From Kiritimatiellia bacterium (lineage in GTDB: Bacteria; Verrucomicrobiota; Kiritimatiellia; RFP12; UBA1067): a stretch of 64,000 bases of DNA. The stretch's first letter is position 1. The number at the start of each line of letters is the position of its first letter. The stretch spans positions 928,001 through 992,000 of the forward strand of contig JBMNFY010000017.1 of NCBI GenBank assembly GCA_050949565.1, written 5' to 3'. A model generated the notes under the pieces. That model did not search any database. It was given only the letters and a program-made list of their open reading frames with translations, and was not told the DNA's origin. The translations under genes and the position numbers were made by a program. Shown here one piece after another: positions 30,929 through 38,900 of this stretch.

Positions 30929-32107
30929 ATGAATGAAAACAAGGCCAACTTTGCAAAAATCGGCTTCTTCGTCCTAGCCGGCGCAGCCCTGATCGTACTG
31001 GCGATCGGGATTGCCGGCGCACGCACCTTCAACAAAAAAGTGGTCGAAGCCGAAACCTACTTCGCCGAGTCTGTAACCGGTCTGGACTTGGGCTCGCCCG
31101 TCAAATATCGTGGCGTGCCGGTCGGCGAGGTCAAGCGCATCGGATTCGTCTACAGCGAATACGGCAAGCGTAAAAATGACCCGCTGACCCAAGCCGGGGC
31201 ACACCAAGTTCTCGTGGTGATGGCGCTGGATCCGGAGCGTTTCGGTCTGCTCGACGATCAGGCGGCAGACAAGGAGCTGCGTACGCTGGTGCAGCAGGGC
31301 CTACGCGTCAAGATCGCCTCTTCGGGCGTGACCGGGCTTTCGTTCCTCGAACTGGACTACTTCGCACAGCCCAGCGATGTCGCAAAGGATTATCCGTTGA
31401 CGTGGCAACCCGCGAATCCCTTTATTCCATCCACGCCAAGCACCATGAGCAACCTCAAAAGGGCGGTTGACGATGTCTTCGTCAAGCTGAGCGCCATCGA
31501 CCTGCGGGCGTTGGGCGACGAGATGCTCATCACGCTCTACCTGCTGCAAAACACCCTCAACAAAACGGATATCCCGGCGTTGAGCGCCGAGGCAACCAAA
31601 TTGCTGGGCGAACTACGCGAGACCAACCGCTCGGTCAAGAAGCTGCTCGACGCGCCCGAACTCGCGACACTCCCGGCCGATCTCGGCGCGACATTAGAGA
31701 GCGCGCACCGCATCACCACCGGGATCGAGACGAACATCTTACCGTTGGCCACTAACCTGCGCCAGATCGTCGGTCGCGCCGACGGTCTACTTGGAAACGC
31801 CAACGACCTGATCGACAACGCGGACAGTCTGATCGACAATGCAGATCGCTTCATCGGCAACGCCGACCGTCTGCTCACCACCAACAGCGCGGTAGTCGGT
31901 GAGATGGTCGGCGCCCTCAACCAGACCGCCCAGACACTGAACCGCACCACGCTCGCGCAACAGGGCGCGTTGGGCGAACTGATTCAGAGCCTGCGCACGG
32001 CCGCCGCAGACCTAGAGCGTCTGGTAAACGAAATGAGCGCGAACCCTTCCGTCCTGCTATTCGGCCAGCCGCCACTGCCATTGCCGGAGACACAGCCAGA
32101 TGAGTAA
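30929..32107 (+). CDS. mlaD: MlaD/MCE family protein with long helical tail
   Basis: N-terminal TM; ESVTGLDLGSPVKYRGVPVGEV; NPSVLLFG end. Confidence 0.88.
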   Translation: MNENKANFAKIGFFVLAGAALIVLAIGIAGARTFNKKVVEAETYFAESVTGLDLGSPVKYRGVPVGEVKRIGFVYSEYGKRKNDPLTQAGAHQVLVVMALDPERFGLLDDQAADKELRTLVQQGLRVKIASSGVTGLSFLELDYFAQPSDVAKDYPLTWQPANPFIPSTPSTMSNLKRAVDDVFVKLSAIDLRALGDEMLITLYLLQNTLNKTDIPALSAEATKLLGELRETNRSVKKLLDAPELATLPADLGATLESAHRITTGIETNILPLATNLRQIVGRADGLLGNANDLIDNADSLIDNADRFIGNADRLLTTNSAVVGEMVGALNQTAQTLNRTTLAQQGALGELIQSLRTAAADLERLVNEMSANPSVLLFGQPPLPLPETQPDE

Positions 32108-32540
32108 AAGTCGAACGTTGAAAGTGGCATGGGCGTCCCGCCCATGAGACACACGGGCAAGATGCCCGTGCCACACTTGCCAAAGAAAGTTGAAAGTTGA
32201 GAGTTACCAGAAGGAGTTTTGACATGATTAACATGATTTGGAGGGCGAGTGTCCCCACGAGCCGCCGGAACGAGCAATGGAGGGCGAGTGTCCTCACGAG
32301 CCGCCTTCCGCCATGCGGAAGGATAGTCTCAGGTTCCATTGCGGAGCGCCGGGAGGGGCAAGCGTCTGCTTGCCCGGCGGCGGTCACGCCGCCACACCAA
32401 AAATCTCTGCGTCTCCGCGTCTCTGTGTTAAAAAAACGCTCAACGCTCAACGTTCTGCGGGCGGGGACGCCCGCGCTCCCGACTGCGCACACACAAAACA
32501 CGCGCCCGACTCGCATAACCCTTGTCACTAATCGGTTACG
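32108..32540. repeat. Mosaic of REP-like hairpins and 7-9-mer short repeats inserted in the mla operon
   Basis: GTGGCATGGGCGTCCCGCCCATG..CACGGGCAAGATGCCCGTGCCAC; GAAAGTT repeats; two TGGAGGGCGAGTGTCC..ACGAGCCGCC; GGGAGGGGCAAGCGTCTGCTTG shared with ~35465-35508 and the 181-bp array. Confidence 0.85.
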
Positions 32541-33168
32541 TGTTTCCTTGGTATTGCTTGCGTCGAGCCTGCTGCTAGCGGGGTGCCTGAGCGGCAGTCG
32601 CCAGGCACAACGCGAGGCGCTGACGCAAAAGCGTACCTTTGTGCCGCTGGCAGGCCCCGCCAAGCCGCTCTCGTCCGCGTCGCGCGCGGCCGCCGTCAAG
32701 GTACGCGCCTTCCGCGCCCAGCCGCCGTTCGATGCACGACACTTCATCGTGCGGCGTCCCGGCGGTGAATTCGCCGCCGATTACTACAACGGCTGGCTGG
32801 CCGCGCCGCACGAACTGATCCGCGTGCAGGCCACGCGTTACATCGAAGCTTCCGGGGTGTTCGAGGCTGTCTATGACAGCGCCAGCGGCACGGTCGCGCC
32901 GTTGGGGTTGGAGGGACTGGTCACCGAACTCTATCTCGACCACACCGGCGACACGCCCACCGCAGTCGTGGCCTTGCGCCTGCTAGTGCTCGATGAGCGC
33001 GCCCCTTCCTTCACGGTATTGGCGACGCACGAGGCGCAGGCACGCGTCGCCTACACCCCCGGCACACCATCCGCCGCTTCCGAGGCCTTCGGCCAAGCCC
33101 TGACCCAAGTGCTTGAGGAGTTGACTACAGCCCTGTCGACCAGCAAGTTAAGCGTCGCTGAGCGTTGA
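32224..33168 (+). CDS. PqiC-like ABC-transport auxiliary lipoprotein (start uncertain; the 5' part runs through repeats)
   Basis: Lipobox LLLAGC near 32569-32586; DYYNGWLAAP; last gene of the mlaEFD operon. Confidence 0.75.
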   Translation: MINMIWRASVPTSRRNEQWRASVLTSRLPPCGRIVSGSIAERREGQASACPAAVTPPHQKSLRLRVSVLKKRSTLNVLRAGTPALPTAHTQNTRPTRITLVTNRLRVSLVLLASSLLLAGCLSGSRQAQREALTQKRTFVPLAGPAKPLSSASRAAAVKVRAFRAQPPFDARHFIVRRPGGEFAADYYNGWLAAPHELIRVQATRYIEASGVFEAVYDSASGTVAPLGLEGLVTELYLDHTGDTPTAVVALRLLVLDERAPSFTVLATHEAQARVAYTPGTPSAASEAFGQALTQVLEELTTALSTSKLSVAER

Positions 33169-33493
33169 CCACCGCAAGGATGGCGGCGCGGCTAGAAACA
33201 CGAAATGTCTAATGTCAAACTACGACCCCAAGAACCCCTAGTGCTCGATGAGCGCGCCCCTTCCTTCACGGTATTGGCGACGCACGAGGCGCAGGCACGC
33301 GTCGCCTACACCCCCGGCACACCATCCGCCGCTTCCGAGGCCTTCGGCCAAGCCCTGACCCAAGTGCTTGAGGAGTTGACTACAGCCCTGTCGACCAGCA
33401 AGTTAAGCGTCGCTGAGCGTTGACCACCGCAAGGATGGCGGCGCGGCTAGAAACACGAAATGTCTAATGTCAAACTACGAGCCCCAAGAACCC
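32983..33493 (+). repeat. Tandem duplication of 255/256 bp (3' end of the PqiC-like gene plus a 24-bp IR)
   Basis: 32983-33237 repeated at 33238-33493; the only difference I found is one extra G at 33481. Confidence 0.92.
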
Positions 33494-35201
33494 GACCAGT
33501 TCGCCGTCGTGTCGTCCGAAAAGATGAAGGGCATCAGCAGATATTCGGGAATCCATACGACGTTGCCCTTGCGCGCCGCCACAGCGAACCGCGTGCGCCC
33601 GTTGTCGAGTTCCGCGAGCGGCACGACGTCCGCGCCCGGTTTGAACGCATACGACGCATACGGCTTGCAGAAGCCGTCGATATTCGGATTGCGCCGCAGC
33701 GGAGTCCGCACGCCGTCCACGACCGCGACCATGTTCGACCAGACATCCTGGTTCTGGATGCCCCACTTCCGCGAAACAGGCACTTCGTCGTCCGCCCGCA
33801 TTTCCAGAAGATTCTTCATGCCGGAAATATCCGATGGATCCGAGCCGCCCACCACAAGAAGCCGTCCGCCCGCATCGCGGTAGCGTTTGAGCGCGTCGGC
33901 GCCGTCAGGAGCCAGGTGTCCGCTCTGCCCGAGGGAGATCATCACCGCCCCCATCTCCGTCGGCGGCGGCAGTCCCTTCGCAAGGTCGCGTGTCGCGATT
34001 CCCTTCACGGCGTAACCGTGGTCACGCAAGGTCCGTCCTGCGGACGCTGTGATCATGCGCCCCACATAGGAAAGCCCCGGACGCGCGAACATGCCGTAGG
34101 GTTCGCACACGAGCCCGACCACGCCCTTGGGCTGCGCGGGATTGAGCGTTTCATCGAAGATACCGTCAAAGACAGCCTGTTTCGCGGGATCAAGCTCGGA
34201 GAAGAGACGATCCATCTCTTTGCGGCAAGCCGCGTCAAACCCCGCATCCGGCAGGGGCGCGTCAACGGACTTGTGAGCCCAGCAGGTGGCCGTCATGTCC
34301 ACAAGGATGCGTACCTGCATCGCCACGAGTTCTGCCAGGGCATCTTCGGCCTCCGGACGCGGTGAAAAGGCGATCTTGCCCTCTTTTTCGGCCGCGTAGC
34401 CGGCCTGTCGCACAGCGTCCGTCACAAAGCCGAACACGGCTGCCTCAAATGATCCCTGCGGGACATGCGGCACATAGTTGCGCAATTTTTCGCGTACGCG
34501 CCGCACCACGGGGCCGTCCGACCGGAATCCGAACACATTCTTCGATCCCGGCTCCACCTTCTGCAACGCGTAGTCCACGCCGGGGAAACGCGAATACTGT
34601 ACAAACTGCAGAAGCGGCGGATGGTTGAGAGCGCTTTCATCCGAAACGGAATGTGACAGGACGGAAATATAGAACGCGGCCCGCGTATGCTCGCCCTTTG
34701 CGAACGCCCGCGCGAGGAGCCCCATCATCGTTGCACGCGCGCGCTCCCGATGCAGCCAACCCGAGTTCTTATATCCCTGCTGCGCCAGAATCGCCGCATC
34801 TTCTACGCCGACCCGCTCCTTGATCTCTTCCAGTGAATGATAGCCCCTTTTGCCATTCTCCCTCGGCCACTCCGTCATGTCCGGATAGTGGCAGAACGCA
34901 ATCAGCACGCCAAAATCGGAAAAGGTGAAGAATGATTGTATCTCGGCGGGCAAGGTCTCGCCCACAAGCATCGCCACCTCGTCATGCTCCACGTCCCAGC
35001 CCCACACAGGCAACAACGCTCCAGCCAAGACACATGTCAACGTCAACCGAAACCAAAACTGTCGTCTCATTCTCTTTCTCCCTCAGTTGACACCCATTAT
35101 GCGGGGAGGGGTAAAAGAGTCAACCCCGTAATTGGTTAGTGACAGGGGGTGCGAAGATCATGCGTTTCTGGGGGAACGGGGTCGTAGTTTGACATTAAAC
35201 A
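33461..35201. mobile_element. Single-gene cassette bracketed by 24-bp inverted repeats
   Basis: TGTCTAATGTCAAACTACGACCCC (33206-33229; +G variant 33461-33485) versus GGGGTCGTAGTTTGACATTAAACA (35178-35201), 23/24 match; no TSD seen. Confidence 0.65.
33475..35070 (-). CDS. Secreted protein: Zn-dependent phospholipase C/P1-nuclease-like N-terminal domain plus GATase-like domain, probably 3'-truncated
   Basis: Signal peptide followed by W-x-x-x-H (WDVEH), YPD, WLH and SHSVSD; stop codon lies inside the IR. Confidence 0.65.
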   Translation of the reverse strand: MRRQFWFRLTLTCVLAGALLPVWGWDVEHDEVAMLVGETLPAEIQSFFTFSDFGVLIAFCHYPDMTEWPRENGKRGYHSLEEIKERVGVEDAAILAQQGYKNSGWLHRERARATMMGLLARAFAKGEHTRAAFYISVLSHSVSDESALNHPPLLQFVQYSRFPGVDYALQKVEPGSKNVFGFRSDGPVVRRVREKLRNYVPHVPQGSFEAAVFGFVTDAVRQAGYAAEKEGKIAFSPRPEAEDALAELVAMQVRILVDMTATCWAHKSVDAPLPDAGFDAACRKEMDRLFSELDPAKQAVFDGIFDETLNPAQPKGVVGLVCEPYGMFARPGLSYVGRMITASAGRTLRDHGYAVKGIATRDLAKGLPPPTEMGAVMISLGQSGHLAPDGADALKRYRDAGGRLLVVGGSDPSDISGMKNLLEMRADDEVPVSRKWGIQNQDVWSNMVAVVDGVRTPLRRNPNIDGFCKPYASYAFKPGADVVPLAELDNGRTRFAVAARKGNVVWIPEYLLMPFIFSDDTTANWSGSWGS

Positions 35202-35840
35202 GCAGAAAGACGAAGGACAAGGAACAGCGAAATGATCGTTTCAAATTACCTGTCCCTTAGTTGCCCGTGTTTCATGGGCGGGACGCCCATGCCACGAGGG
35301 GTTTTGCAAGAACCTCAGACGAAAAAATTTGGAGTGCGGCGGCAAGCGGTATTCCGCGCGACGCCGCTTTTTGAGCAGTGTGTCTCCGCGCACAGCGCGG
35401 AGAGAAAGCGGTGCCGCGACCCGCGCACAGCGCGGCTCTTGTCATCGCAGATTTCGCCGCTGCAGGCGGCGTGACCGCCGCCGGTCAAGCAGACGCTTGC
35501 CCCTCCCAGTGCTCCGCGATGGAACCAAAGATCATCCTTCCGCACAGCGGAAGGCGGCTCGTGGAGACACTCGCCCTCCAACCTTCGCGTCTTCGCGTGA
35601 AATCACTGAGCGGTGCTCCCCAAAAACCTCTGTGTTCTCTGTGCTCTCTGTGGTTCCAAAAACCCGGGCAGTGCTTTTACTCTCGTCATTGCGAGCCACT
35701 GCGTGGTCGCAATAAGAGAGGTTGACTCGCGACTCGCGACTTGCGGTCGGCCCTGCCACCCCTAAAAACCTCTGTGCCCGACTGCGCACACACAAACCAC
35801 GCACTAAACTCGCAAGCCCCTGTCACTAACCGATTACCAC
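35202..35840. repeat. Mosaic of REP/MITE fragments and short tandem repeats
   Basis: MITE half at 35261-35316; GGAGTGCGGCGGCAAGCGGTATTCC module (reverse of ~50580-50630); reverse copy of ~32275-32395; CTCTGTG nonamers; GACTCGC heptamers; 35777-35837 similar to 32478-32539. Confidence 0.85.
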
Positions 35841-35857
35841 AAACCACACGAACGCGC

Positions 35858-35886
35858 TTGACGCCGTCATATAGCCGATTTAAACT
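35858..35886 (+). promoter_or_regulatory. Sigma70-type promoter
   Basis: TTGACG-17 nt-TAAACT upstream of a GGAGG RBS and the ATG at 35956. Confidence 0.6.
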
Positions 35887-35955
35887 ATATCTTGCTTAAA
35901 TCATTTGGCAGAGCTGTGCCGTACCTTTACAAGGTTATACACGGAGGGCGATGCG

Positions 35956-38900
35956 ATGAAGCGAACTGTCTCGTCTGTTTCGATGGCTCTTTTTGCGGCG
36001 CTCGTCACGGTGCCGCTGTCGGCCCGATCTGAGATTTACGACCCGGCCGAAACATTCTCGATCCAAAACGGCAATCCCAACGGCGTGTGGGCCTATGGCT
36101 GGATGGATACCGCCTTCGCGACATTCACGCTGTATGTGAACGCCGGCTTTTCCAGCGGCGTCAATCCGCACTGGTACGGGTGGGGCAGCAACTGGACGCC
36201 ATCGATCTGGCGGAATGACGCCAATCTGACCGGGATTTGCCAGCCCGGCTGGCTGCACCTGCATCCGGGAAACGGCAACCAGGGCAGCGTGCTGCGCTGG
36301 ACGGCTCCAAGGGCAGGGCATTGCCGGGCTGAGGGGCGGTTCCTTCCCAGAGATTACGGTACGATGCAGGTCGGCGTACGGCACAACACCGACTGGTTGT
36401 GGCAGGCGACGAATGCCGGTGCCTTCACCTGCGAGGTCGATGTCGTCAAGGGTGACGTTCTGGCTTTCACGGTTTACGGTGGATATAGCAGCGGAACAAC
36501 GCCGCTGAGTGTCCTGATCGACGGCCCGTCGGCACCGGCGACGCGGTATGTGAACGCGGCATCGGCCACGCCCGTATCGCCCTATCTGACGCCGGCGACA
36601 CCGGCCCCCGGATGCAGCACGGCTTCTCGGTCGCGCGCCTCGGCACCAACACGGTCGCGCTGCGTGTCACGGATCACGTCATGCAGACGCACGTCGATTC
36701 CTGCCGGGTGGTGCTGACCATGGGGCAGCCGCCGGTCGCCGAGATCGGTCCCGACCGTACGGTCGAGACCGGCTGGCCGTTGGATTTTGACGGGACGGGT
36801 TCTTCGGACGACGTCCGCGTGTCGCGCTATGTCTGGAATTTCGGCGACGGCACGACCGGTACCGGGCCGCGGCCGCGCCACATCTACCGCTCGGCGTCGC
36901 CGACAAACTACACCGCCGTGCTCACAGTGTATGACGCGGTCGAACAGGCCAGCGCACCCCGCACCGCCCAAGTCAGCGTGGTGACCGGCACGCTGCCGAG
37001 AGCGGAGACCGGCGGCCCGTACACGGCGGGCGCCGGCGGACCGCCCGCCTACTTCGATGGCAGCGCGTCGTCCGACGACCTTGATCCGGCGGTTGTGCAG
37101 GGCGTGGCGAAGTATGTCTGGGACATCGACACGACCGTGGACAGCGACGGTGACGGCATTCCGGACAACGATGTCGATCTCATCGGGCGGCGGGCGTTCC
37201 ACACCTACGCCGATCCCGGCACGTATCTCTGCAAGCTGACCGTGACCGACGCAGCCGGGCAATCGCACAGCGATACGACGACCGTGCAGGTCATGACCAA
37301 TCTGGCCCCGCATGTCATCTGCGTGCCGTTGCACGGCAACCCCGACGTACCGCATCTCGTGTACGCGGGCAAGGCCGTCACGCTCAAGGGCATCGCGCGC
37401 GATGCTGGTGCGCTCACGTATCAATGGGACTTCGGCGACGGCACGACTTCGGCGGTGGCGGCGGTGACGGATCAATATGTCATTCAGGCGACGCACACCT
37501 ACATCGGACCGCCGAACCGGTCTTTCACCGCACGTTTGACCGTGTGGGACGCGCAAGGGCTTTCCGGCAGCGACGAGTACCGGCTGGTGATGCGGCCCGA
37601 CACGGCGAGCACCCGCGCCGAAGTCGCAGTGGACGAGGCGCTCTGGTGGCTGCACAAGAATCAAAACCGCGAGGCCGGATATTGGAACAATCCGACCGAC
37701 AACAGGTCGGACTACCGTCCGGCCGCGGCGGCGGGCGCGGTGCAGGCGCTGCTGACGAACGGGCACCGTCCCGAAGGCGACCCGACGGAAGACCCCTATG
37801 TCGAAACGGTCAACCGCGGGTTCGACTACCTCTTCTCGACGCTCCAGACGCGCGCGATGACGTCTCAGCCCTACGGCGATCCGGACACCAACGGAAACGG
37901 CATCGGTCTGGAAGTTTACGCAAACCGGGGCTATCAACAGGGCATGGTCATCGATGCCATCGCCTCCACGCAGCACATGCTCGGCATGGCGCGCACCGGA
38001 GGATTGCCGGAGTTAAAGGTGCCTTCTACTTCGACATCGTGACCGACATGGTCGACGCGCTGATTTTCGGACAGAACGACAGCGCCGACCGCGGCGGCTG
38101 GCGGTATGACTGGAACTACGGCAGCTCCGACAACTCGGTCTCCCAATGGGGTGCGATCTCGCTACTGGCCGCGGACAATCACTTCTGCATCAAGACGCCG
38201 GCGTGGGTCATGGAAGAAAACAAGCGCTGGCTCGCCGCCAGCTTCATTGACGGCTACTACTGCTATAGGCCCACCGAACGGTACCCGTGGAGCGAAACCG
38301 TCTGGCACTCCACCCAGCCCTCGGCACTCATCCAGATGGCCGTCAATAACATCTACGTGACGAACGCCGTGTGGCACACGGCCGAAATGGCCATCGCCGA
38401 CAATTGGGACAGTGTCTACGGCAATGCCGCCAACCGCAATTATTACGCGCTTTACGCGGTGACCAAAGCCATGCGGCTGGCGCGCCCCCGCCCCGTGACC
38501 TACCTGGAGAAGACATTCATCGACTGGTACAACGACGATACCCGCGGCGTGCGGCAAAAGCTCCTGTCGCATCAGGCGGCGGACGGTTCATGGTCGGCCT
38601 GGTACAATGATCGTGGCTCGGCGCTCAACACTGACCTGTCGACCGCGTGGGCCGTTATGATGCTCACGCCGACGCTCTTCAGCCAGGCACCCGTACCGGT
38701 GATTACCGCGCCCTCGGTCTGGGGCTACGGCGAGCCCTTGACCGCGAGCGCCCAAAATTCGTTCCACATTGATTCTTCCCGACACCTTGTCTCCTACGAA
38801 TGGGATTTCGATGGCGACGGCACCTATGACTATCAGACCGCCGATCCCCTCGATCCGGCCGCGCAGTGGACTTACCCGGATCCGCATCCCGACGTTGACG

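Follow-up and report, generated by a model that had tools for sequence, protein, structure and literature searches.

In the genome of a Kiritimatiellia bacterium, a gene that runs opposite to its neighbors lies between two inverted 24-nucleotide (nt) repeats, and we consider it likely that these repeat arms come from the terminal inverted repeat (TIR) of a TIRtron, copies of which are scattered through the genome, and that the gene between them, a chromosomal resident, was truncated by a local rearrangement anchored at the tip of one of the copies. The gene (the cargo) and its two arms (members of a repeat family that we call K1) lie within a 64-kb stretch of DNA, the window, which corresponds to G000:C17:928001-992000, where G000 is the 4.66-Mb source genome (21 contigs, 60% G+C). 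A first-pass annotation of the window had proposed that the cargo was captured between the arms by a trans-acting enzyme able to insert arbitrary DNA, in the manner of an integron.

The arms belong to a repeat family that brackets a Y1 transposase gene

The two arms (33206-33229 and 35178-35201) are complementary at 23 of 24 positions (96%; 0.01 such pairs expected by chance), exactly as first reported, and the 19-mer GGGGTCGTAGTTTGACATT occurs three times in the window, where 0.01 copies are expected and none of 100 shuffles attained three. K1 is a module of about 35 nt, made up of a core of about 24 nt (GGGGTCGTAGTTTGACATTAGACA) and an outer tip of 8-10 nt, so that the repeat does not end at GACCCC/GGGGTC as had been thought. 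A K1 16-mer is found 27 times exactly in the source genome and 47 times with up to two mismatches (9 for the reversed control). An nhmmer profile gave 49 matches at E<=1, and the genome-wide search that had been suggested thus recovered, together with a Y1 gene, a family of about 39 strong copies (>=30 bits) in 16 clusters. The three window copies score 41.7, 35.4, and 35.8 bits; the two copies beside the transposase gene score 41.1 and 39.4.

These last two copies, at C8:242450 (plus strand) and C8:243600 (minus strand), point their GGGG ends outward and bracket an ORF (open reading frame) of 351 amino acids (aa) at C8:242526-243581, the full unit spanning C8:242.45-243.60 kb; the stop codon of the ORF falls inside the TIR. 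The protein matches Pfam Y1_Tnp at 45.5 bits (cut-off 23) and NCBIfam REP_Tyr_transpos at 53.7 bits, under its cut-off of 80. Residues H60-Y61-H62 and Y120 are invariant in all 35 aligned homologues, and the transposase has more than 4700 matching proteins of about 350 aa, some of them named 'REP element-mobilizing transposase RayT'. The link to HUH (Y1) enzymes of the RAYT type, which the first-pass annotation had suggested, is therefore supported. In an AlphaFold model of the transposase (mean pLDDT 62, with tail residues 260-348 near 90), Foldseek recovered the TnpA proteins of IS608, IS200, and ISDra2 and the Escherichia coli REP transposase 4er8 (E 1e-3 to 8e-3), and residues ~260-348 superposed on DnaA domain IV (3pvp_B, TMt 0.85, rmsd 1.9; 1j1v_A, TMt 0.86, rmsd 1.7). 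When the tail alone was run against Pfam, only noise was returned, with no Bac_DnaA_C match at E<=5, and phmmer gave no match to the transposase in the PDB. Judged by sequence, the window arms are members of the TIR family of this transposase gene.

K1 copies occur in the source genome as one full unit, one decayed unit (on C4, with a 160-aa fragment), tandem arrays, solo ends, and gene-less doublets with tips outward and 96-433 nt separating the cores. By the sequence beyond the TGTC end of the core, they fall into four classes: a relic of the transposase 3' end (class A), the transposase promoter and 5' region (class B), a flank common to several K1 copies (class C), and K1 butted against another repeat family (class D). 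The left copies of the window are class A, a right end; the 38-nt relic beside the first (33168-33205) is 95% identical over 38 nt to the transposase 3' end at C8:243561-243598 and 91% identical to C7:153107-153172 (blastn). The right copy is class C and carries a left-end-type tip. DNA folding of six segments on both strands gave z from -1.6 to +1.5 with the core unpaired, so K1 forms no hairpin and is not a REP, and that candidate identity was rejected.

Full units with the same TIR are present in two other genomes, one with a transposase of 81% (L061) and the other of 96% (L072) amino acid identity. The exact K1 23-mer was found at 17 loci in genomes of other species, the record titles of which name Kiritimatiellia, Lentisphaeraceae, Hydrogenedentota, and Verrucomicrobia metagenome-assembled genomes (MAGs); exact copies under such different phylum labels suggest horizontal spread and not purely vertical inheritance. 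No target-site duplication was seen at K1 units. In a relative of the same genus, G004, whose assembly is 78% complete, the transposase gene was not found, and an empty-site comparison there at two other K1 loci met an assembly too fragmented to read, homology ending before K1 at C8:220 kb. The G+C content of K1 flanks is 0.565, compared with 0.604 for random windows (0 of 20,000 resampled means were as low); we give this little weight, since most of the null is coding DNA and K1 is intergenic. The ORFs next to K1 copies have no gene family in common apart from two tandem paralogues and ORF ends derived from repeats.

Several further observations concern the family at large. Four K1 units in the same orientation, three gene-less and one with the transposase, lie within 25 kb at G000:C8:220577-244879, and two of the three intervening segments are low in G+C (0.47-0.51) and carry orphan ORFs. 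K1-adjacent ORFs match Hfx_Cass5, an integron-cassette protein family (C7:153581-154252, E 7e-9), the DUF6036 nucleotidyltransferase family (C4:30248-30907, E 9e-9), and NucS_C (C17:608599-609720, E 2e-8). At C9:27887-29189, a diverged K1-like copy immediately precedes a 396-aa ORF that matches Y1_Tnp weakly (19.7 bits, below the cut-off). Since the source genome has seven Y1_Tnp matches, several Y1 genes may each serve a repeat family of their own. Contig C15 (1-545) starts within a K1 array, and K1 clusters therefore break assembly.

A duplication and a deletion meet at the tip of the left repeat

The features of the locus are the following, with coordinates in the window.

32197..33168, plus strand: geneU, the upstream gene, final gene of an MlaE/MlaF/MlaD-type ABC operon
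32983..33237: tandem unit copy 1, 255 nt, containing the geneU 3' end, a 38-nt transposase-3'-end relic, a K1 core, and a tip
33168..33205, minus strand: class A flank, a relic like the 3' end of the K1 transposase gene (..RNV*)
33206..33229, minus strand: K1 core of left copy 1, the arm first cited; the minus strand reads GGGGTCGTAGTTTGACATTAGACA
33230..33237, minus strand: tip of left copy 1, AAGAACCC, a recurrent breakpoint
33238..33493: tandem unit copy 2, 256 nt, in the place of ~227 nt of the related contig L045, the final 21 codons of the cargo included
33461..33485, minus strand: K1 core of left copy 2, GGGCTCGTAG.., source of the cargo TAG stop at 33475-33477
33475..35070, minus strand: cargo, gene for an exported two-domain protein, C-terminally truncated
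35071..35127, minus strand: cargo promoter and ribosome-binding region, TTGACT-16 nt-CATAAT, read by eye
35125..35181: an unrelated intergenic repeat, ~54 genome copies, overlapping the right K1 tip
35169..35201, plus strand: right K1, tip 35169-35177 and core 35178-35201, with TTAAACA for consensus TTAGACA
35202..35239, plus strand: class C flank, 87-88% identical (blastn) to C8:40852-40919 and C15:5-69, common to other K1 copies

The cargo is the single long ORF between the arms (531 aa), and the genes on either side (32197-33168 and 35905-36717) are on the plus strand; the earlier description of one gene, opposite to its neighbors, was accurate. Pfam gives no recombinase domain in the cargo and the flanks hold no direct duplication, in agreement with the reported lack of an internal enzyme and of a target-site duplication. 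A tandem duplication of 32983-33237 as 33238-33493 gives two left K1 copies; the sole difference is one G inserted at 33481 in the second copy. As a result, the left arm first cited abuts a duplicate of the geneU 3' end and not passenger DNA as had been stated. The stop codon of the cargo does come from the repeat, as proposed, and sits within the motif GTCGTAG, but it is supplied by left copy 2 and not by the arm to which it had been assigned.

Both joints created by this arrangement fall at the tip. In the duplication joint, between 33237 and 33238, the tip is connected to a point 255 nt behind (..AAGAACCC(C) joined to TAGTGC..), and in the deletion joint, between 33493 and 33494, to a point within the cargo (..AAGAACCC joined to GACCAG..); each lies 8-9 nt outside GGGG. 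The same boundary recurs elsewhere in the genome: 13 of 14 same-orientation pairs of neighboring K1 copies, with periods of 39-662 nt, lose identity 8-11 nt outside GGGG while the other boundary varies, and the fourteenth is the window's own pair, which is offset by the inserted G and by eye lies at 8-9 nt. In other genomes, three of four close K1 pairs show this tip boundary. In G004, whose Mla genes are 97-99% identical in nucleotides, homology with the window stops exactly at 33237. Here the whole region to the right of the tip is replaced by 4.5 kb that in the source genome lies 435 kb away, and the join is inside another gene, a 986-aa ORF. At this join (L084 from 4798 onward, G004:C1), what comes after the tip is the 3'-terminal 184 codons of the gene C17:523164-526124 (986 aa in G000); the 5' part was not found in G004, which at 78% completeness does not amount to absence. 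At least four different sequences are thus found next to the left tip: that of L045, those at the duplication and deletion joints of the window, and that of G004.

A related strain carries the full-length cargo at the same place

The ancestral arrangement is seen in L045, a metagenome contig that is 99.7% identical to the window over 648 nt of cargo (the last part that is present in the window) and 99% identical over 3.2 kb of geneU and MlaD/F/E, with the same gene order and orientation. There the cargo continues for 21 further codons (..AMRLDSFAFRFFFHALRGRDR*) and is followed by about 160 nt of other repeats and then by a single K1 unit. The unit that is tandem in the window (32983-33237) is single copy in both L045 and G004. 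Compared with L045, the window has lost ~227 nt and has a 256-nt second unit in their stead. On the right side, L042 and L043 are 99.7-100% identical across the repeat, with the right K1 at the same place. The first-pass annotation had suggested a comparison of strains for variable cargo at this site; L042, L043, and L045 carry the same gene at the same place.

The suspicion that the gene is truncated was well founded. The product has 526 native residues followed by GSWGS, which with its stop (GSWGS*) is read from the repeat, while a 547-aa NCBI protein (P0001), 99% identical to the cargo product, is full length, and 11 other homologues share its conserved ..MRLDSFA.. helix (alignment; 112 homologues found). 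Homologues of the cargo do, then, extend past the repeat with a conserved tail, as had been asked. The lost 3' end was sought elsewhere in the genome by tblastn with the last 60 residues of P0001, giving chance-level matches only.

A more distant copy bears on the origin of the gene. The cargo together with its promoter (window 35127-33496) is 91.4% identical in nucleotides to L044 3944-5661 and L041 828-2545. The promoter-like sequence is conserved with the gene in both, the homology in L044 beginning 57 nt upstream of the ATG, and no K1 motif is present within 4 kb of the cargo copy in either. From these comparisons the cargo is probably a resident chromosomal gene with its own promoter and not a captured cassette. 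In G004 (78% complete) the cargo/o270/PKD region was not found, at a completeness too low to mean absence.

We propose the following sequence of events. A TIRtron is a mobile unit that consists of one TIRYT (TIR-associated tyrosine transposase) gene between inverted cores of about 24 nt, each with an outward tip of 8-10 nt. The cargo happens to have a solo right-end copy on one side, just after geneU, and on the other side, upstream of its promoter, a solo copy of left-end type, so that the tips point at the gene, the reverse of the arrangement in a transposon. In this strain, the DNA would have broken at the tip of the left copy and been rejoined there. Joining of the tip to a point 255 nt behind would produce the tandem duplication, and joining to a point ~227 nt ahead, inside the cargo, would delete the final 21 codons, as a result of which the reading frame would enter the repeat and stop at its TAG. 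Y1 enzymes of the IS608 type cleave a short and constant distance away from their end elements, and nicking by HUH enzymes generates a 3'-OH that is able to prime synthesis or to rejoin elsewhere. The TIRYT would, on the sequence pattern, cut or nick about 8-11 nt outside the core, and the one-ended joints would be by-products.

Contigs of public runs support one joint and lack the other

The window stretch was found in 19 public runs from 14 studies (anaerobic digesters, sludge, landfill, and bioreactors). Four of the 19 were compared with the window, as contigs only, and contigs drop rare forms. X1 and X4 each have a 60-nt contig (33208-33267) that crosses the duplication joint without a difference and has about half the depth of the flanks, and the presence of the joint in both runs makes the duplication a real polymorphism. 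The interval 33337-33427 has no contig cover in X1, X4, and X6, which is uninformative alone.

Several observations weigh against the truncation of a resident gene at a K1 tip. In all four runs, the contigs that cover the cargo depart from the window at 33494, with 105-198 unlike letters; no contig of these runs spans the truncating joint, which is known from this assembly alone, and no protein identical to the 531-aa form is among the homologues listed. The truncation, not met outside this assembly so far, could be an artefact. The genes next to the cargo copy in L041 and L044 are only 72-79% identical to G000 and map to other parts of the genome, and a cargo orthologue was found in none of six genus relatives (56-89% complete), with a weak paralogue at most; the cargo gene alone may, on this sequence evidence, have moved by some route, either lateral transfer or relocation. 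The tips are loosely conserved, with the right tips of two 96%-identical units differing, and the outer end given for the element is approximate. Finally, slippage during replication, or repair at a site prone to nicks, would leave joints of the same appearance.

If the assembler made the duplication, the truncating joint, or both, the real genome would be like L045. The absence of the truncating joint from the contigs of all four runs and the divergence of every cargo-bearing contig at 33494 fit such an error, as do the odd 1-nt insertion in copy 2 and the start of contig C15 of the same assembly inside a K1 array. However, the duplication joint was found independently in X1 and X4 with no differences, and the joints are located outside the repeat core, in unique sequence, and share their 8-9-nt tip position with 13 other arrays in the genome and three elsewhere, which a random misjoin would not. 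Misassembly is on balance unlikely, if not negligibly so, and for the truncation we hold it to be so because the joint obeys the tip rule.

The segment between the arms is probably not a mobile or invertible unit

In one contig of X1 (depth 15.8), 33236 is connected directly to 35175, so that the two tips meet and 1938 nt are skipped. The shorter side of this joint has 23 letters, all of them repeat, and such joints often stem from repeats or other organisms. No tip-to-tip K1 pair is present in G000 or the compared loci, and an exact search of genome contigs for the joint gave 0 matches.

This joint is what would be expected if, as the first-pass annotation proposed, the DNA between inward K1 tips were a cassette moved by a trans-acting Y1 enzyme, an integron without attC. 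Other data point the same way: four of five inward-tip segments within 6 kb are low in G+C (0.42-0.51, compared with 0.60 for the genome) and hold small orphan ORFs, the ORF that matches Hfx_Cass5 lies just past the segment on C7, and the cargo with its promoter recurs at 91% identity in a foreign context while not being found in the six genus relatives. But the orientation of the repeats at the cargo is opposite to that of the pair around the transposase, and inward tips arise automatically between two doublets or direct-orientation units, as at C8 220-245 kb. The G+C content of the window cargo is an ordinary 0.61. In the near-identical L045 the full-length gene occupies the same site with ~227 nt of unrelated DNA between it and the left repeat tip, and the closest foreign copies (L041, L044) have no K1 motif. 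The X1 joint has its 23 repeat letters to set against it, and the same cargo was not found at two K1-flanked sites. The only orphan cargo tried, a 320-aa gene between C8 K1 units, has no relatives in genome contigs. A local duplication and deletion anchored at the repeat tip explain the truncation. We regard gene capture as quite improbable, and the integron-like mechanism is not supported.

A related possibility is that direct-orientation K1 elements carry the DNA between them as a passenger, as in composite transposons or ISCR-type read-through, or that it is mobilized from one end. The four same-orientation units on C8, among which the full unit is followed by a 1.0-kb low-G+C gene and then a doublet, have this form, and in the window the cargo has a right-end-type copy on its left and a left-end-type copy on its right. 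These are inner ends only, though, with no outer partner in the 64-kb window; no passenger was found at a second site, and the 96%-identical unit of another genome (L072) has no adjacent passenger. Such mobilization appears very unlikely.

Inverted 24-nt sites around a gene opposite to its neighbors, at a site common to many loci as for global invertases, might also mark a segment whose inversion switches the gene (phase variation). Against this, the cargo has one orientation in the window, L042, L043, and L045, no strand-changing joint is present in the contigs of the four runs (in which rare forms are dropped), and the associated enzyme is a Y1 HUH protein and no invertase. Moreover, the promoter lies within the segment alongside the gene, and flipping would therefore not switch expression. 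To inversion we assign hardly any weight. Truncation of a resident gene at the K1 tip remains our preferred explanation.

The cargo product and the neighboring sequences

No Pfam or NCBIfam family was found for the cargo product, and a comparison of its sequence profile with known structures gave only a chance-level match (E 0.29). In a model of full-length P0001 (pLDDT 90.9), the lost helix is the final one (residues 532-543); L530 and D531 are invariant across 41 sequences. VIA-align matched residues 25-270 to zinc phospholipases C and P1-type nucleases (1olp_A, Z 12.8; 1ah7_A, Z 11.2; 8qjl_A, Z 10.0), values that are only moderately convincing because the fold is helical, and residues ~293-547 to ThuA/GATase1-like domains (Z about 11; 1t0b_A, Z 11.3). 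The cargo protein is accordingly predicted, on the model, to have an N-terminal zinc phospholipase C/P1-nuclease-type fold and a C-terminal ThuA/GATase1-like domain.

The three genes that precede geneU match Pfam MlaE, ABC_tran, and MlaD. GeneU itself has a weak match to the NCBIfam LBF_0736-family ABC auxiliary lipoprotein (48.7 bits, cut-off 250). Its true gene is about residues 106-323: the first ~110 codons of the ORF cross high-copy intergenic repeats, the N-terminal part has matches at more than 90 places in G000, and orthologues in G001, G003, G004, and G006 align from residue ~106-135 onward only. The plus-strand ORFs 33205-33423 and 33460-34365 begin at an ATG within K1 (MSNVKLRP..) and are artefacts of the repeat and the duplicated geneU end.

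The intergenic regions at 32120-32540 and 35260-35840 are a mosaic of other short repeat families, with 50 to >260 genome copies each. One repeat of about 55 nt (CCCCTGTCACTAACCRATTAC..; ~54 genome copies) is present at 35125-35181 and also at 32519-32539 and 35817-35837; one copy lies immediately upstream of the promoter of the cargo, and in L044 a related piece stands before this promoter as well. Rfam gave no families in 32000-36500 at E<=0.1.

Relation to known elements

TIRtrons carry TIRYT genes, which are RAYT-like Y1 genes with HTH/DnaA_C-like tails and non-hairpin TIRs (PMC3733652, PMC6006769). The name TIRYT is that of Di Nocera, De Gregorio, and Rocco (2013, PMC3733652), and TnpA-Y1 subclass 2.1 of Quentin et al. 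(2018, PMC6006769) is the corresponding class. As far as the accessible text of these papers goes, the TIRs form moderately abundant families found as singles, dimers, and clusters (PMC3733652, PMC6006769) and often start with GGGGWSAS, with only some sharing the motif (PMC3733652). The K1 unit has the same constitution: a RAYT-like HUH/Y1 gene between long non-hairpin inverted repeats, a 3' TIR that overlaps the gene end, TIRs that begin with GGGG and are dispersed as singles, dimers, and clusters, and a C-terminal domain of the DnaA_C/HTH type. It is a TIRtron with TIRYT architecture and dispersed TIRs, and hence a known type of element. The K1 head GGGGTCGT fits GGGGWSAS, the majority type in the 2013 paper, at six of eight positions, and tip-anchored duplications and deletions or the truncation of a neighboring gene are not described in the portions of PMC3733652 and PMC6006769 available to us.

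K1 also resembles the REP/REPIN-RAYT systems (Bertels and Rainey 2011, PMC3116915; PMC5581495), in which a single-copy Y1 gene is flanked by inverted short repeats and the repeat, frequently in doublets or arrays, is spread intergenically. It differs in being non-palindromic, in having a transposase below the REP_Tyr_transpos cut-off with an extra C-terminal DNA-binding domain, and in the occurrence of exact 23-nt copies in MAGs labeled as different phyla. With the IS200/IS605 elements (IS608, ISDra2) it shares the HUH/Y1 core by fold and the lack of a target-site duplication; unlike these, it lacks both subterminal hairpins and tnpB, has inverted ends, and encodes a 351-aa protein with an added domain.

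In classical IS-mediated adjacent deletions and in the one-ended transposition of IS91/ISCR, one breakpoint is fixed at the element end and the other is variable. The outcomes at the window locus, deletions, duplications, and truncated neighbor genes, are similar, but the enzyme class is another, no intact element is present at the locus, and the mechanism is inferred. The likeness to integron cassettes is superficial: a gene lies between repeated sites and the enzyme is encoded elsewhere, but there is no attC-type hairpin, the gene has its own promoter, unrelated DNA separates gene and repeat in L045, and near-identical strains show no variable cargo.

What the locus means for TIRtrons

The locus has a practical side as well as a biological one. 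ORF starts and ends read from such repeats (MSNVKLRP.., MSNYDP.., ..GSWGS*) are repeat artefacts, of which annotation should beware, and K1 repeats can damage neighboring genes.

The activity of TIRYTs and TIRtrons is treated as open in the available text of PMC3733652 and PMC6006769: Di Nocera et al. propose TIRYT binding and cleavage assays as future work (PMC3733652), and Quentin et al. speak of potential functions only (PMC6006769). The locus is a natural experiment on this question, since one tip with at least four partner sequences in close genomes, together with over a dozen arrays that have a common breakpoint 8-11 nt outside the repeat core, leads to a testable prediction of the cut site. 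A bolder idea, and an improbable one, is that TIRYT ends are live one-ended recombination sites, where the enzyme would cut about 8-11 nt outside the core and connect the tip to near or distant DNA, that give rise to arrays, deletions, truncations, and larger rearrangements and, in the boldest version, that segments between inward tips move as units. The X1 tip-to-tip joint and the low-G+C orphan genes between inward tips hint at this last version. If it were true, TIRtron ends would be a gene-shuffling device.

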